The translations under genes were made by a program, and so were the position numbers. The notes under the pieces are model-generated. The model did no database searches and had not been told where the DNA came from. It worked only from the letters and a program-made list of their open reading frames with translations. A DNA stretch of 43,852 bases from a virus (lineage: Duplodnaviria > Heunggongvirae > Uroviricota > Caudoviricetes). The stretch spans positions 1-43,852 of IMG/VR virus record IMGVR_UViG_2563366881_000002; one strand, written 5' to 3'. The first letter of the stretch is position 1; each line of letters opens with the position of its first letter. Shown piece after piece: positions 12,605-19,427 of the stretch.

Positions 12605-13357
12605 ATGAACCTTGAAGCCTTACCAAAATATTACTCCCCAAAATCTCCAAAATTGAGCGATGACGCACCGGCGACAGGCTCAGGTGGTTTAACGATTACG
12701 GATGTGATGGCTGCGCAGGGGATGGTGCAGTCGAAAGCACCGCTTGGGTTTGCCTTATTCCTGGCAAAAGTTGGTGTTCAGGATCCTCAGTTTGCGATTG
12801 AAGGTCTGCTCAATTACGCGATGGCAATGGATAACCCGACATTGAACAAATTGAGTGAAGAAACCCGGTTACAGATCATCCCTTACCTTGTGAGTTTTGC
12901 CTTTGCTGATTATTCCAGGTCTGCGGCAAGTAAGGCTCGCTGTGAGCATTGTGCTGGTACTGGATTTCATAGTGTATTGCGCGAAGTGGTGAAACACTCC
13001 AGAAGCGGGGAATCTGTTATCAAGGAAGAGTGGGTGAAGGAATTATGTCAGCATTGCCATGGTAAGGGAGAAGTCAGCACGGCTTGCAGAGGGTGTAAGG
13101 GTAAAGGCATTGTCCTGGATGAAAAAAGAACCCGGCTTCATGGCACACCTGTTTATAAGATTTGTGGGCGTTGCAATGGAAACCGGTTTAGTCGTTTACC
13201 GACCACACTGGCACGACGTCATGTCCAGAAGCTGGTACCAGACCTGACTGATTATCAGTGGTACAAAGGATATGCAGACGTCATTGATAAACTGGTAACA
13301 AAGTGCTGGCAGGAAGAAGCATTCGCTGAAGCACAATTGAGAAAGGTGACGAGATAA
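12605..13357 (+). CDS. Q: late-gene antitermination protein Q (QuuQ/Q82-like, zinc-binding)
   Basis: 250 aa; CxxC pairs (CEHCAGTG, CQHCHGKG, CRGCKGKG, CGRCNG); followed by candidate pR' and terminator; position between nin-like genes and lysis cassette. Confidence 0.7.
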   Translation: MNLEALPKYYSPKSPKLSDDAPATGSGGLTITDVMAAQGMVQSKAPLGFALFLAKVGVQDPQFAIEGLLNYAMAMDNPTLNKLSEETRLQIIPYLVSFAFADYSRSAASKARCEHCAGTGFHSVLREVVKHSRSGESVIKEEWVKELCQHCHGKGEVSTACRGCKGKGIVLDEKRTRLHGTPVYKICGRCNGNRFSRLPTTLARRHVQKLVPDLTDYQWYKGYADVIDKLVTKCWQEEAFAEAQLRKVTR

Positions 13358-13388
13358 GTGATTTTCACCGAAGATGGCGACATGATGC

Positions 13389-13417
13389 TTGCATTTCTCA
13401 AAAAATATGGATAAGAT
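13389..13417 (+). promoter_or_regulatory. candidate late promoter pR' (TTGCAT-N17-TAAGAT)
   Basis: Sigma70-like -35 TTGCAT (13389-13394) and -10 TAAGAT (13412-13417) with 17-nt spacer, ~30 bp after Q stop. Confidence 0.35.
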
Positions 13418-13462
13418 TTTCCCAACGATGGGCTTTGTATGTCTACCGTTGATGAGTCCAAG

Positions 13463-13494
13463 AACCCGCCGCCGAGCGGGTTAAATTATTTTTT
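13463..13494 (+). terminator. intrinsic terminator (tR'-like) downstream of candidate pR'
   Basis: Stem AACCCGC/GCGGGTT with 6-nt loop followed by AAATTATTTTTTC. Confidence 0.4.
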
Positions 13495-13511
13495 CTTACA
13501 CGGGGATATGG

Positions 13512-14042
13512 ATGTTATACCGAGATCTTTTGCCTATTTTCTCAGAAAGACCCATATTTAAAGCTCCTGAGGCTGAAAGAATACTTCGTGAGCAATATTC
13601 TATCGCCGCCCCCACTCCTGTAATTCAGGAGATTTATTATGGATTGGCAGGTTATGACAGATTTCAGGAGCTTTATGGGGATCTTAATATTGACCAAATC
13701 GAATGGAAATTGATTGAACTTCCCACTAAAAATTTTTTAACTATCGGGGATAATGCTACTTACCCTGATTTTTTGCATGAGGTCGTTGAAGATTTCACAA
13801 CCCGTAAAGGCGATGTATTTATGGATGATGAAATAAAAGCGCATTGGTGTAATTTTGGCACATGGTGTGAACCTCCATTTTTTATAGATCGAGCTTTGCT
13901 GAAAAGTAATACAACAGGGCTTCATTTAATGGAAGGGCATACAAGAGTTGGAACCCTGTTAGGGGCAGTTAAGTATAACTTCGTTAAGCTTGCTAATACT
14001 CATAAAATTTATTATGCGCAAGCAAAAGAATGTATTAAATAA
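13512..14042 (+). CDS. hypothetical protein, AT-rich cargo (176 aa)
   Basis: Clean ORF followed by a strong intrinsic terminator; AT-rich codon usage; no family recognised by eye. Confidence 0.55.
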   Translation: MLYRDLLPIFSERPIFKAPEAERILREQYSIAAPTPVIQEIYYGLAGYDRFQELYGDLNIDQIEWKLIELPTKNFLTIGDNATYPDFLHEVVEDFTTRKGDVFMDDEIKAHWCNFGTWCEPPFFIDRALLKSNTTGLHLMEGHTRVGTLLGAVKYNFVKLANTHKIYYAQAKECIK

Positions 14043-14078
14043 GTTGAGTGAAATTACTGTTTTTTTTTAACAATACTT

Positions 14079-14101
14079 ACCGCGTTCTCGCGGTTTTTTT
14101 A
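14079..14101 (+). terminator. rho-independent terminator
   Basis: ACCGCG-TTCT-CGCGGT hairpin followed by T7. Confidence 0.6.
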
Positions 14102-14223
14102 TAAATTAAACATTGGTGCAGTACGGTAAACACGCTGGTGGTCGTGAATACTGACTTTTTATCTTGCTGGCTTTTTAGACAAGAGTTATTGGTATGTCAT
14201 GTTAACCATGAAGGTAAAAAGAC

Positions 14224-14418
14224 ATGCTAAAACAGCAAGATATGACAGAAACGGCGAAAGTTGTTTTTAATGAATTAAACGGCAAACCGGCAACAGTCGG
14301 GGAGATAGCACAAAACACATACCTTTCACGCGAACGCTGTCAGTTAATACTGACCCAGCTGGTTATGGCGGGGCTGGCAGATTACCAGTTCGGCTGTTAC
14401 AGACGCCTTCAGCAATGA
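14224..14418 (+). CDS. small hypothetical protein (64 aa), possible winged-helix DNA-binding protein
   Basis: Short ORF upstream of methyltransferase; helix-turn-helix-like ..ATVGEIAQNTYLSRERCQLILTQL.. Confidence 0.4.
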   Translation: MLKQQDMTETAKVVFNELNGKPATVGEIAQNTYLSRERCQLILTQLVMAGLADYQFGCYRRLQQ

Positions 14419-14567
14419 AGGGCTTTTAATTTGTGAAAATGGGCGGCTGGTGGGTGTTGGTAGCACCTGCCAGCCATTCGCTCATGCTTACTGGTCACAA
14501 GCGAACCATGGCCCACTGCTTTAGCGCAAAAGCAGAGTGAGCCTACCAGAGTTACGCTTACTGATCC

Positions 14568-15629
14568 ATGAAAAACACTGTAAAAATAAACAGTATTGAT
14601 TTAATCAACGCTGATTGCCTGCATTTTATTCAGTCCCTGCCTGATGATTCCATTGACCTGATTGTTACCGATCCGCCTTACTTCAAGGTGAAACCCAACG
14701 GTTGGGACAATCAGTGGAAAGGGGACGAAGATTACCTTAAGTGGCTGGACCACTGTCTGGCCCAGTTCTGGCGGGTGTTGAAACCTGCCGGAAGCCTTTA
14801 CCTGTTCTGTGGGCATCGCCTGGCATCTGATATTGAGATCATGATGCGTGAACGTTTCAACGTGCTTAACCATATCATCTGGGCGAAGCCGTCCGGACGT
14901 TGGAATGGGTGTAATAAAGAAAGTCTGCGCGCATATTTTCCTGCCACAGAGCGCGTTCTGTTTGCTGAACATTACCGGGGGCCATATCGCGGCAAAAGTG
15001 ACGGCTATGTGGCAAAAGAAAGGGAACTCAAACAGCACATAATGGCACCGCTGATATCGTATTTCAGGGATGCTCGTGCCGAACTGGGTATAACGGCAAA
15101 ACAAATTGCCGAAGCCACAGGTAAGAAAAATATGGTTTCCCACTGGTTTGGTGCCAGTCAGTGGCAGTTGCCGAATGAGGCTGACTACCGGAAGTTACAG
15201 GCACTGTTTTCCCGTATAGCGGCAGAGAAGTTTCAGGAACAACAACTGGAACAACCACACCACCAGTTGGTGGCATCTTATGATTCACTGAATCGCAAAT
15301 ATTCTGAATTGCTGGATGAGTTTAAATCTCTCCGGCGCTATTTCTCCGTATCAGTCTCCGTGCCTTATACCGATGTCTGGATGCATAAACCCGTTCAGTT
15401 CTACCCGGGTAAACATCCGTGTGAGAAACCGGCGGATATGCTCAGGCAAATAATCAATGCCAGTAGTCGACCCGGCGATCTGGTTGCTGATTTCTTTATG
15501 GGATCCGGTTCCACAATAAAAGCAGCAATGGCGCTGGGGCGTCGGGCGTTAGGTGTTGAGCTTGAGACAGAGCGGTTTAATCAGACCATCCAGGAAATCA
15601 GTATGTTATCAGCAAATACAATTTTGTGA
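14568..15629 (+). CDS. DNA methyltransferase, beta-class amino-MTase (N6-adenine or N4-cytosine), orphan
   Basis: Motif IV DPPY (..LIVTDPPYF..) near N-terminus and motif I FxGxG (..FFMGSGST..) near C-terminus; no adjacent restriction endonuclease recognised. Confidence 0.85.
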   Translation: MKNTVKINSIDLINADCLHFIQSLPDDSIDLIVTDPPYFKVKPNGWDNQWKGDEDYLKWLDHCLAQFWRVLKPAGSLYLFCGHRLASDIEIMMRERFNVLNHIIWAKPSGRWNGCNKESLRAYFPATERVLFAEHYRGPYRGKSDGYVAKERELKQHIMAPLISYFRDARAELGITAKQIAEATGKKNMVSHWFGASQWQLPNEADYRKLQALFSRIAAEKFQEQQLEQPHHQLVASYDSLNRKYSELLDEFKSLRRYFSVSVSVPYTDVWMHKPVQFYPGKHPCEKPADMLRQIINASSRPGDLVADFFMGSGSTIKAAMALGRRALGVELETERFNQTIQEISMLSANTIL

Positions 15630-15870
15630 ATTAATTCAATTATTGGTGGGATGTCTGTGCCGTATAATGATTACAGATACAGTGTATCCTGCAATGCAGC
15701 AGGGCTGATGTGGTGGGTTGTACATAGCCTGCAAAGGATTGGCTTCATTAATTCATCGTTGATACAAGCGAGTCACGGTTGACCACGCCAACGGCTCATC
15801 GGTAAAAATCCGACACCGTGTCTTCTTAACTCACTTATTGTTTCCACCCATGTTTTTGGATACCTGCTGT

Positions 15871-15910
15871 AGCTGTCAGATTAGCGCGATAATCTGACAG
15901 CTTTTTTTTT
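15871..15910 (+). terminator. rho-independent terminator
   Basis: 12-bp stem AGCTGTCAGATT...AATCTGACAGCT followed by T9. Confidence 0.55.
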
Positions 15911-16201
15911 ACAACGAATCCTTCTGATCTGCTTTTGCGGGGCTTTTTTGTATCCGCTCCATGCCCGGCGTATAAGCGGAGGTTGGTCAGTTTTCTAAAA
16001 ATTGAAATACCTCACAATTCAGCCAGTTAATGGTTGTTTGTCTGGCGAAGAGTTTGTAAATAAAAAAACGCATGGTGAATCCCCCTAAGCGGCGGGGCGA
16101 ATCAGCAGTCAGTTCTGGGATAATCGCGGGTTCGTATGCTGATGCCGGACTCACCGGGAGGCACCCGGCACCATGCATCATGGTCATCCCCTTGTATGAT
16201 A

Positions 16202-16226
16202 CCCCTCTCCGGAGGGGTATTTTTTG
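16202..16226 (+). terminator. rho-independent terminator
   Basis: CCCCTC-TCCG-GAGGGG hairpin followed by TATTTTTT. Confidence 0.55.
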
Positions 16227-16658
16227 GATAAAAAAGCCCGCGCTGGGAGGCACGGGCGGCAAGGAATAAAACGTGAAGAAATTTTCACAGGCGCATAATA
16301 ATCCGATGTTGCCAGATTTTGCAACTGCATCATCTGGTTATTATGTGAGCTGGAAAATCAGATTCTGTATGGACTGAAGCCATGCTGTTATTTAGGGCCA
16401 AAGAGCTGGCTTTTTCCCGCCTTCTCTCCAGTAACGATTAATGAGAAAAGAATGAAATGCTTTTCCTGGGGAGGAGGGCAGTAGAAAAAAGAACCCGCCA
16501 GCAAAAATATGGGGGATGAACAGCTTTTGCTACTCAGGTTGCTGGCGGGTATGGTTCTTCATGAAATAAGAATGTTACGCGGTATTTTTAATGAAAATGA
16601 TAATTATTGTCAATTGGTTGTGCGTATTTTTTCATACATGACTGGTAAAGGTGATTCA

Positions 16659-16692
16659 GGCCATCAGAGTTTTGCTGATGGCCTTTTTTCTT
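16659..16692 (+). terminator. rho-independent terminator immediately upstream of holin
   Basis: GGCCATCAG-AGTTTTG-CTGATGGCC followed by TTTTTTC. Confidence 0.55.
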
Positions 16693-16722
16693 TCCGGTAG
16701 CACAGGTCTGTTGGGGCGGGAT

Positions 16723-16938
16723 ATGTATCAGATGGAAAAAATATCAACAGGCATTGCCTACGGCACCTCCGCAGGCAGTGCTGGCTACTGGTTTTTACAA
16801 TGGCTTGATCAGGTTAGTCCGTCTCAGTGGGCTGCGATTGGTGTACTGGGAAGTCTGGTTCTGGGCTTTCTGACTTATCTGACGAATCTGTACTTCAAAA
16901 TCAGAGAAGACAGAAGAAAGGCTGCGAGAGGAGAGTAA
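16723..16938 (+). CDS. holin, phage-21 S21 / EssQ-type pinholin with dual start (71/68 aa)
   Basis: [71 protein letters not shown] closely matches recalled S21; two in-frame ATGs (16723, 16732) give the holin/antiholin dual-start motif. Confidence 0.85.
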
Positions 16939-17630: not shown

Positions 17631-18164
17631 ATGAACGCAAAAATCAGATACAGCCTGTCGGCTACTGTACTAGTGCTGATTGGTGCAGGCGCGTCTGCTC
17701 CTCAAATACTTGACCAGTTTCTGGACGAAAAAGAAGGTAACCACACAACGGCATACCGTGATGGTTCCGGCATCTGGACCATCTGTCGGGGTGCCACGAT
17801 GGTGGATGGAAAACCCGTTTTTCCCGGTATGAAACTGTCGAAGGAAAAATGCGACCAGGTTAACGCCATCGAACGTGATAAGGCGCTGGCATGGGTGGAA
17901 CGTAATATTAAAGTACCACTGACCGAACCACAAAAAGCGGGTATCGCGTCATTTTGCCCCTATAACATTGGCCCCGGTAAGTGTTTCCCGTCGACGTTTT
18001 ATAAGCGGCTTAATGCCGGTGATCGTAAAGGTGCCTGTGAGTCGATTCGCTGGTGGATTAAGGACGGTGGGCGTGATTGCCGCACACGTTCAAATAACTG
18101 CTACGGACAGGTTATTCGTCGTGACCAGGAAAGCGCATTAGCCTGTTGGGGGATAGATCAGTGA
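17631..18164 (+). CDS. SAR endolysin (T4-lysozyme-like, RrrQ/R21-type)
   Basis: N-terminal Gly/Ala-rich weakly hydrophobic SAR segment (..[16 protein letters not shown]..); catalytic E-x8-D-x5-T (..[16 protein letters not shown]..); 177 aa. Confidence 0.85.
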
Positions 18165-18653: not shown

Positions 18654-18947
18654 TTATTTTGAGCAATACACCCGCGCTTCCAGCGGAGTATAAATGCCAA
18701 AAGTGATGAAACCGAGCAATCCATTTACGAATGTTTGCTGGGTTTCTGTTTTAACCACATTTTCTGCACCACCACAAATTTTTGCTGCATCGACAGTTTT
18801 CTTCTGCCCAATTCCCGAAACGAAGAAATGATGGGTGATGGTTTCCTTTGGTGTTACTGCTGTCGGTTTGTTTCCAACAGTAAACGTCTGTTGAGCACAT
18901 CCTGTAATAAGCATTGCCAGAGCGGCAGAAAACAACATTTTTTTCAT
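18654..18947 (-). CDS. bor: Bor lipoprotein (serum-resistance family)
   Basis: MKKMLFSAALAMLITGCAQQTFTV...TPLEARVYCSK near-identical to recalled lambda Bor; 97 aa; lipobox LITGC. Confidence 0.85.
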   Translation of the reverse strand: MKKMLFSAALAMLITGCAQQTFTVGNKPTAVTPKETITHHFFVSGIGQKKTVDAAKICGGAENVVKTETQQTFVNGLLGFITFGIYTPLEARVYCSK

Positions 18948-19427
18948 CTTATTATCCTGCATTGTTAAAAACGGCAGAATCCTATGTGACAACAATTAAA
19001 CGATAGTTAAATGGATTGATGAAAATTAAAACTACACAGGTGAGCTCAGACGATTGGAGGGAGTTGGGGACACTCAGAATCCTGTAGAATGAAATAAACC
19101 GGTCTATCCGTCCATTACCCTTTTAGCTGCGCTGTATCGTCGCCGTATTCCCGCATTAACCATGACCGTAGCCCGACGGGGAATTCCTTCTGCGTGAGTG
19201 TGCGGGAATAATTAAAAACGATGCACACCGGGTTTTTACCGCGTTAATGATTCGCGGATTTATCCCGGTGCGATGGTGGAAGAAACCGGAAGCTGTATTA
19301 CAGAAAGTGCTACTACTGTATCCCGATGCGATGTATGTAATGTGAGTCAGATAATGGCACAGGATGTGGTGATGTGGCAGTCTGGAACACAGGATATATT
19401 GTCAGAATAAGACCCGTAGGAATAAAA

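Follow-up and report, generated by a model that had tools for sequence, protein, structure and literature searches.

Both the ParB/sulfiredoxin (Srx) fold and the occurrence of free-standing ParB-fold proteins on mobile elements have been described before, as represented by Srx, Osa, ToxB, and the short phage proteins of a survey of the ParB fold (PMC12704722). The GxxR motif of this fold reads GERR (ParB), FGGCHR (Srx), DGQQR (GmrS), or DGQHR (DndB), and its arginine is needed for the binding or hydrolysis of nucleoside triphosphates (NTPs) (PMC12704722; PMC4619093; bioRxiv 10.64898/2026.05.05.722872). In ToxB, a minimal ParB-fold ATPase without a DNA-binding domain, toxicity depends on GxxR (bioRxiv 10.64898/2026.05.05.722872). 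In the current study, we analyzed a stretch of DNA of 43,852 nucleotides (nt; hereafter the window; IMG/VR record IMGVR_UViG_2563366881_000002), which is an Escherichia coli lambdoid prophage with 100% identity to several complete genomes. Here, we report that ORF176, the gene that follows the antiterminator gene Q in this prophage, is a discrete single-gene cargo cassette, and that its product belongs to a new sequence family, the core of which very probably adopts the ParB/Srx fold as judged from a structural model.

The initial annotation had described ORF176 as a well-formed, AT-rich gene with its own terminator, and our data agreed with this on each point: the coordinates were confirmed, an ATG and a Shine-Dalgarno sequence (Table 1) were identified, the GC content was 36.9% (28% at third codon positions) compared with 51.6% for the whole window, and the stop codon is followed by a hairpin with a tract of seven T. 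The start codon is fixed, since M1, Y3, and L6 are invariant among the 16 closest homologs. The dN/dS ratio was 0.26–0.37 against natural E. coli variants at 94–99% identity, albeit from small counts, and these sequence comparisons indicate that ORF176 is a real gene under purifying selection. The product is a soluble, mildly acidic protein of ~20 kDa, in which neither a signal peptide nor a delivery domain was found. Of the 5426 complete E. coli genomes, 90 carried the full gene, in every case under the annotation "hypothetical protein", and exact or near-exact copies were found in the order of a thousand contigs each for E. coli and Salmonella.

The mapping of the junctions, by megablast of positions 13300–14250 against other E. 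coli genomes and by a three-way prophage alignment, demonstrated how the gene came to lie at this site. The megablast matches ended at 13482 (query position 183), which is the end of the tR' stem, and restarted at ~14090 (query positions 791–793). In E. coli 23CRST010, the site is empty, and the tR' hairpin with an intact T6 leads directly into the sequence upstream of ORF64; in E. coli Esc16, a different gene of 141 amino acids (aa) replaces ORF176 at the same junction. Since prophages with an empty site and with an alternative cassette were both found at one junction, ORF176 is a discrete insertion, namely a single-gene cargo cassette (moron) in the hotspot between Q and the lysis genes. This three-state comparison, together with Q upstream and the holin and lysozyme genes downstream, confirmed the cargo position that had been proposed for the gene. 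The flanks of the cassette match ~1600 E. coli genomes, and only 90 of these carry ORF176.

A discrete insertion, atypical base composition, and an own terminator are the features of a phage moron, and ORF176 shares all of them with the morons described between Q and the lysis genes of lambdoid phages, such as stx and the gtgA/pipA family of Gifsy-type prophages. It differs from them in that no promoter of its own was detected, so that it depends on pR', and in that it does not encode any known virulence or defence protein. As an observation on the same interval, the Gifsy-2-like Salmonella phage ZC-S1_prp carries a PipA/GtgA-family gene (L002 7394–8080, minus strand; PF07108, E 3e-130) between Q and the lysis genes along with an ORF176 homolog, and sodC lies further downstream. 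The alternative Esc16 cassette (L050 1541–2530, aligned with window 13455–14110) encodes the hypothetical protein WP_000217632.1, the N-terminus of which resembles a lipoprotein signal, and has on either side a near-identical copy of the tR' hairpin, AACCCGCCACTGAGCGGGTTTTTT; these paired copies suggest cassette exchange by recombination at the terminator.

The late operon of lambdoid phages such as lambda begins with the promoter pR', a short leader RNA, and the terminator tR'. By analogy, the stretch from 13389 to 13482 probably represents the same arrangement: the candidate promoter begins 32 bases past the stop codon of Q, matches 7 of the 12 consensus positions, and is conserved in the empty-site and alternative-cassette prophages, and the tR'-like hairpin lies ~45 nt beyond it. 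A simple promoter scan of 13200–16800 reported no plus-strand site and left this candidate unflagged. The ATG of ORF176 is located 29 nt past the hairpin, which therefore leaves no room for an own promoter, and the plus-strand scan found none between tR' and the ATG that could serve expression in the lysogen. As the cassette was inserted immediately after tR', it would be transcribed from pR' as the first late gene, in a Q-dependent manner during lytic growth. The tR' hairpin is followed by AAAUUAUUUUUU in this window and by U6 at the empty site and in the locus of the Klebsiella homolog; that is, the insertion swapped the contiguous T6 of the empty site for AAATTATTTTTT. Because the T-tract of tR' was replaced, some read-through in the lysogen would be conceivable, and the altered tract might weaken tR' and let some Q-independent expression from pR' through.

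The curated libraries name no family for ORF176, as had been noted initially from its translation. No match was obtained in the Pfam and NCBIfam scans or, at E ≤ 1, in PADLOC-DB v2 (2023 library), the PHROGs search matched only the unannotated family phrog_8867, and literature searches on the protein accession and on Gifsy-2 locus tags returned nothing on this family. Relatives were nevertheless readily found. A word-indexed homology search identified proteins of ~50% identity in Salmonella, Klebsiella, Enterobacter, Citrobacter, Kluyvera, and Hafnia, and an exhaustive hidden Markov model search of 1.8 billion cluster representatives returned 286 proteins at E ≤ 1e-3, including 138 at E ≤ 1e-10, most members of the family being 165–185 aa long. 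Conservation counts and bridging scans were based on 52 sampled members. All of these matched phrog_8867, none had a Pfam match at E ≤ 1, and the scans against Pfam and PHROGs at this threshold revealed no bridging family; likewise, the precomputed Pfam tables from a profile search showed no core domain on any of 74 hits and no bridge.

The conservation within the family is concentrated in the signature HWxxxxTWxxPP...LHLVEGHTRxGxLxGL...HxVWxG. Five residues (W118, P122, E141, G142, and R145) are kept in 52/52 homologs, four others (W112, T117, L149, and H164) in 51/52, and H143 and T144 in 48/52, and P34 and Y55 are conserved within the N-terminal region. Approximately one third of the sampled distant homologs (P0028, P0061, P0072, P0105, and others, as well as the protein at L016 5914–6729) are long forms with a conserved C-terminal helical extension of ~85 aa (W..V...PF..WL...), for which a weak, non-significant resemblance to YozE/SAM-like proteins was obtained (PDB 2o6k, E 0.29; PF06855, E 0.21). 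These comparisons indicate that ORF176 and its relatives constitute a sequence family that is new, is marked by an EGHTR signature and an N-terminal helical region of its own, and is seen neither by PF02195 nor by any other curated library tried.

The structure of ORF176 was predicted by AlphaFold2 (AF2) with the 52-sequence family alignment, and the resulting model was confident, with a pLDDT of 94 and a pTM of 0.89. Behind the N-terminal four-helix region, the core consists of a strand (63–71), two helices (85–97 and 106–115), two strands (123–126 and 137–141), a helix (143–155), and a last strand (163–171), which is the strand-helix-strand-strand-helix-strand order of the ParB/Srx superfamily. 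In this model, the EGHTR segment corresponds by its position to the GxxR phosphate-binding motif of the fold, since the motif opens the helix that comes after the third strand, and its G142 and R145 are invariant. The TWxxPP segment would take the place of the base-contacting Box I of ParB, and no Box III (ENxxR) was found in ORF176. The fold search with the model returned ParB/Srx proteins, with scores of 6.2 for PadC, 5.6 for the N-terminal domain of pNOB8 ParB (ParB-N), 5.2 for Arabidopsis Srx, 5.1 for human Srx, 4.6 for SbnI, 4.3 for KorB and for the free serine kinase SerK, 4.2 for the DUF262 domain of BrxU, and 3.9 for Osa.

Several results qualify this assignment. The fold search gave moderate scores, and its query was a predicted model. 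Neither the single protein nor two family profiles retrieved a ParB/Srx chain from the PDB sequences, the profile search yielding nothing for the core, and no sequence or profile similarity to PF02195 or the families of its clan was detected. The comparison by hhalign with human Srx and with a 120-sequence Srx alignment gave a probability of <1%, the Srx profile being narrow (vertebrate-only, Neff ~2), and the sole local match, which was non-significant, paired the TWxxPP segment with "VPPI" of Srx. As the model-based scores are moderate and the sequence-level tests of homology were negative or uninformative, we refer to ORF176 as a ParB/Srx-fold protein of a new family. On the basis of the model, we consider the fold of the core highly likely, and homology to the known ParB/Srx proteins probable.

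Concerning the known systems of this fold, none corresponds closely to ORF176. Sulfiredoxin (PDB 1yzs, 6ky4) is a minimal ParB/Srx-fold enzyme with the signature FGGCHR, compared with EGHTR in ORF176. The catalytic cysteine of Srx (F(G/S)GCHR) is missing, the equivalent position being histidine in 48/52 homologs, and sulfinic-acid reduction is therefore excluded. In addition, ORF176 has the N-terminal four-helix region and no detectable sequence similarity to Srx, and is a prokaryotic mobile-element cargo, whereas Srx is a redox enzyme of eukaryotes and cyanobacteria. ORF176 is also unlike PadC, pNOB8 ParB-N (PDB 6ryk, 5k5d), and the CTPase domains of ParB, KorB, and Spo0J, as it lacks a helix-turn-helix (HTH) domain, a dimerisation domain, a ParA partner, and Box III: the protein ends after the last core strand, has no HTH or ParB match in Pfam, and no parA gene was found nearby. 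Osa (PDB 4ovb), the fertility-inhibition factor of pSa, matches the model weakly in structure and not at all in sequence, and differs from the prophage-borne ORF176 in being carried by a plasmid and in its action on transferred DNA. The DUF262/GmrS domains of BrxU, SspE, and GmrSD (DGQQR) and DndB (DGQHR) are recognised by Pfam and fused to an HNH/DUF1524 nuclease or other effectors, whereas ORF176 has no effector domain and no Pfam match.

The initial annotation had further pointed to a PD-(D/E)xK-like spacing as weak evidence for a nuclease fold and to a possible restriction-modification (R-M)-like pairing with the methyltransferase gene downstream. The suitably spaced elements YPDF (aa 84–87) and DDEIK (aa 105–109) do occur in ORF176, but the family as a whole does not conserve them: D86 is kept in 11/52, E107 in 22/52, and K109 in 4/52 homologs (3/16 of the closest). 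Moreover, the AF2 model places both segments in helices or a variable loop, and the structural hits were of the ParB/Srx type, with no restriction-endonuclease-like fold among them. The PD-(D/E)xK identity was thus rejected on the unconserved residues and the wrong secondary structure. DNase activity has been reported for some ParB/Srx-fold proteins, e.g., Osa and Arabidopsis Srx (PMC4619093), and by analogy ORF176 may still have a nuclease activity of another kind.

The proposed pairing did not survive the co-occurrence check. In E. coli and Hafnia, a PF01555 methyltransferase gene is located ~1.1–1.9 kb downstream of the ORF176 homolog (start-to-start), which would suit not only an R-M pair but also a second explanation, in which ORF176 is a detached ParB-like accessory subunit that loads or regulates the N6/N4 methyltransferase, as a split counterpart of the ParB-N6_N4 methyltransferase fusions often seen in prophages. 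However, the module of ORF64 and the methyltransferase is present without ORF176 at the empty site, the flanks occur in far more E. coli genomes than ORF176 does, and no methyltransferase lies near the homologs in the Salmonella and Klebsiella prophage sets or at any of the distant loci. A terminator and ORF64 also lie between the two genes, and ORF176 has no match to the N-terminal part of the fusion profile phrog_67. As the two genes are inherited independently, the type II R-M pair and the split ParB-methyltransferase reading were both rejected; we regard a PD-(D/E)xK nuclease paired with the methyltransferase as extremely improbable, and the accessory subunit as very unlikely. As to the methyltransferase itself, it forms a module of its own with ORF64, which is kept in the E. 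coli prophages with an empty site and recurs in Hafnia (51% identity for ORF64 and 73% for the methyltransferase), and no restriction gene was found near this module.

The genomic contexts of the family were then compared. Q lies directly upstream of the homolog in 33/33 enterobacterial loci examined, and belongs to one of two unrelated families, PF03589 in this window and PF06323 in Klebsiella, Hafnia, and Salmonella; an exception to this adjacency is one Enterobacter set, a degraded prophage without Q. The order in the Klebsiella prophages is Q, ORF176 homolog, and holin, and the Salmonella homologs belong to a Gifsy-2-like prophage set. Because the site is a proven insertion hotspot, the adjacency is read as a property of the hotspot; a functional link between ORF176 and Q was set aside for this reason, for the two unrelated Q families, and for the distant relatives without Q.

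Outside Enterobacterales, no conserved neighbour was found among 16 distant loci. The neighbours there include IS/DDE transposases, a STAND/mad8-like NTPase, LmuB, a GajB-like UvrD helicase, PDC-S39, and a DUF5906 primase, and individual homologs were located in an integrative element that also carries ParDE, IS110, and an integrase, in a Stenotrophomonas island alongside an integrase, a caspase-like protease, and Rhs, near a transposase and a NACHT protein in Streptomyces, and in an AlpA/small-terminase element with Abi_C. Homologs were also found on 29 plasmids, 20 from Streptomyces and the others from Rhodococcus, Bacillus, and Vibrio. The homolog on the Vibrio parahaemolyticus plasmid pVPTW011 has the full TWxxPP...LVEGHSR motif, and is a single-gene cassette between integron-attC-like repeats within a cassette array (L062 1–10486). 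The repeats are ~120–140 nt long (TAACAAA...GGCGTTA), and the other cassettes of this array carry ASCH, PLD-like, GNAT, NUDIX, DUF5677, and Phd/RelE genes; a DUF5677 gene also adjoins the Thalassomonas homolog (L010). Integron cassettes, plasmids, integrative elements, and prophages thus all carry relatives of ORF176 that travel as lone genes, and no partner gene is needed. This solitary-cassette family in prophage, integron, and plasmid settings is what is new in the present study.

Phage-defence genes are reportedly abundant among integron cassettes (bioRxiv 10.64898/2026.03.17.712381), and the neighbours listed above make an association of the family with defence genes suggestive but anecdotal. 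It is anecdotal because two loci are ordinary: one homolog adjoins alaE, and another (L059 7001–7516) begins 4 nt past the end of a gene for a RibD-like deaminase, among the housekeeping genes infB, rbfA, rimP, efp, serA, and rpsA, a setting at odds with the mobile-element pattern.

The same contexts bear on the possibility that ORF176 encodes an ATPase toxin resembling ToxB, or a factor for host takeover, acting through nucleoid compaction or disruption, an NTP drain, or release on lysis like Stx, in which tR' and Q would confine expression to the terminal lytic phase so that an immunity gene is unneeded. ORF176 resembles ToxB in the minimal ParB fold without DNA binding, the invariant GxxR, and the conflict context, it immediately follows tR' and lacks an own promoter, and lambdoid phages such as the Stx phages carry toxins at this position. 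ToxB, however, makes up the C-terminal domain of CdiA, which is secreted, and has a cognate immunity gene, whereas ORF176 is free-standing and cytoplasmic with no conserved neighbour, and has neither a signal peptide nor a delivery domain. Furthermore, the solitary relatives in integrons, plasmids, and chromosomes have no conserved adjacent immunity gene or Q-type control, which argues against constitutive toxicity, and ORF176 shows no sequence similarity to the PF02195-type domains, the group in which ToxB was found. We therefore consider such a toxin unlikely.

Another explanation is that ORF176 is an anti-defence protein by which the phage counters host immunity, e.g., through binding or destruction of a nucleotide signal or of an NTP-dependent effector. 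It is small, phage-borne, and a variable cargo of a single gene, a nucleotide-binding fold could sequester signalling nucleotides, and the fold survey speculates on anti-defence roles for prophage ParB-fold proteins (PMC12704722). Against this, ORF176 is placed in the late operon and not among the early genes, many relatives lie beside defence-like genes in bacterial islands and integron arrays rather than in phages, and a homolog was found in only one record among 50,697 phage genomes. This explanation appears less probable still than a toxin.

On the present evidence, we rather propose that ORF176 would be an NTP-dependent switch or hydrolase. It would bind an NTP, most likely ATP, via G142 and R145, aided by E141, H143, and T144, and T117, W118, and P122 would line or neighbour the base pocket; NTP binding is, in our judgement, reasonably likely. 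The protein would then take part in conflict among mobile elements or with the host, and most likely in the exclusion of, or defence against, competing phages or elements. We put this conflict role forward tentatively, as slightly short of an even call. For the combined proposal of a solo cassette driven by pR', the ParB/Srx fold, an NTP switch or hydrolase, and a conflict role, we lean marginally in favour. A bolder version would make ORF176 the founding member of a sequence-orphan branch of ParB/Srx NTPases and a one-protein weapon in mobile-element conflicts, as an anti-phage defence or exclusion factor or as a late ToxB-like ATPase toxin; in this version, the family may have spread across phyla by three single-gene routes, namely by insertion at the prophage hotspot near pR', as integron cassettes, and as cargo of plasmids or islands. 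We regard this version as doubtful.

The features of the locus are collected in Table 1. Among the lysis genes, a DUF1327/YdfR-like gene lies between the holin and the lysozyme genes and Rz follows the lysozyme gene, and iss (increased serum survival lipoprotein; RefSeq), just past Rz, is a second cargo gene of the prophage. The ~1-kb gap between the methyltransferase and holin genes (15630–16650) has no long open reading frame (largest ≤91 aa) and contains a full-length match to the Rfam small RNA (sRNA) STnc100 and strong terminator-like hairpins on both strands, e.g., at 15871–15902 (13 pairs) and 16198–16221. In the region 13200–16800, 18 terminator-like sites were observed compared with 3.7 expected from shuffles.

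Table 1. Positions of ORF176, its predicted parts, and the surrounding features in the window.
Feature	Position	Strand	Description
Antiterminator Q	12605–13357	+	PF03589, E 1.4e-53; phrog_127; gene directly upstream of ORF176
Candidate pR'-like late promoter	13389–13417	+	TTGCAT-17 nt-TAAGAT; putative, read from sequence
tR'-like hairpin	13463–13482	+	AACCCGC-CGCCGA-GCGGGTT; terminator scan; −11.7 kcal/mol; left cassette junction
Inserted cassette (ORF176 and terminator)	~13483–14095		~610 bp; 36.5% GC; junctions from three-way alignment
Shine-Dalgarno sequence	13502–13506		GGGGA; precedes the ORF176 ATG
ORF176	13512–14042	+	176 aa; ATG start
N-terminal four-helix region	13512–13676	+	aa 1–55; family-specific; helices 3–9, 15–29, 35–43, and 49–55 (AF2)
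ParB/Srx-like core	13683–14027	+	aa 58–172 (AF2 model)
T117-W118-x-x-P121-P122	13860–13877	+	just before strand 123–126; putative Box I position
E141-G142-H143-T144-R145	13932–13946	+	junction of strand 137–141 and helix 143–155; GxxR P-motif (Box II) by position in the model
Intrinsic terminator of the cassette	14079–14101	+	ACCGCG-TTCT-CGCGGT and T7; hairpin 14079–14094; −9.7 kcal/mol; right cassette junction
ORF64	14224–14418		64 aa; phrog_331; weak winged-HTH-like Pfam hits; downstream of ORF176
N6/N4 DNA methyltransferase	14568–15629		PF01555; downstream of ORF64
STnc100 sRNA match	16041–16229	+	RF02076; 114.5 bits (gathering score 47)
P21-type holin	16651–16938		downstream of the methyltransferase
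Lysozyme	17631–18164		downstream of the holin
iss	18654–18995	−	just past Rz

The survey of the ParB fold started from PF02195 (PMC12704722), by which ORF176 is not recognised, and would therefore have missed this family; an EGHTR family across many phyla, to which that survey is blind, would extend the known sequence space of the fold. The ParB-CTPase/Srx fold has lately been seen as a versatile NTP switch that is reused well beyond chromosome segregation, and ORF176 would offer a compact (~175 aa), partner-free test case for a bare ParB/Srx domain. If inert, ORF176 would be one more hypothetical moron. The same late-operon hotspot carries Shiga toxin in other lambdoid phages, and a defence, exclusion, or toxic activity of ORF176, if true, would have a bearing on prophage competition in clinical and poultry isolates.
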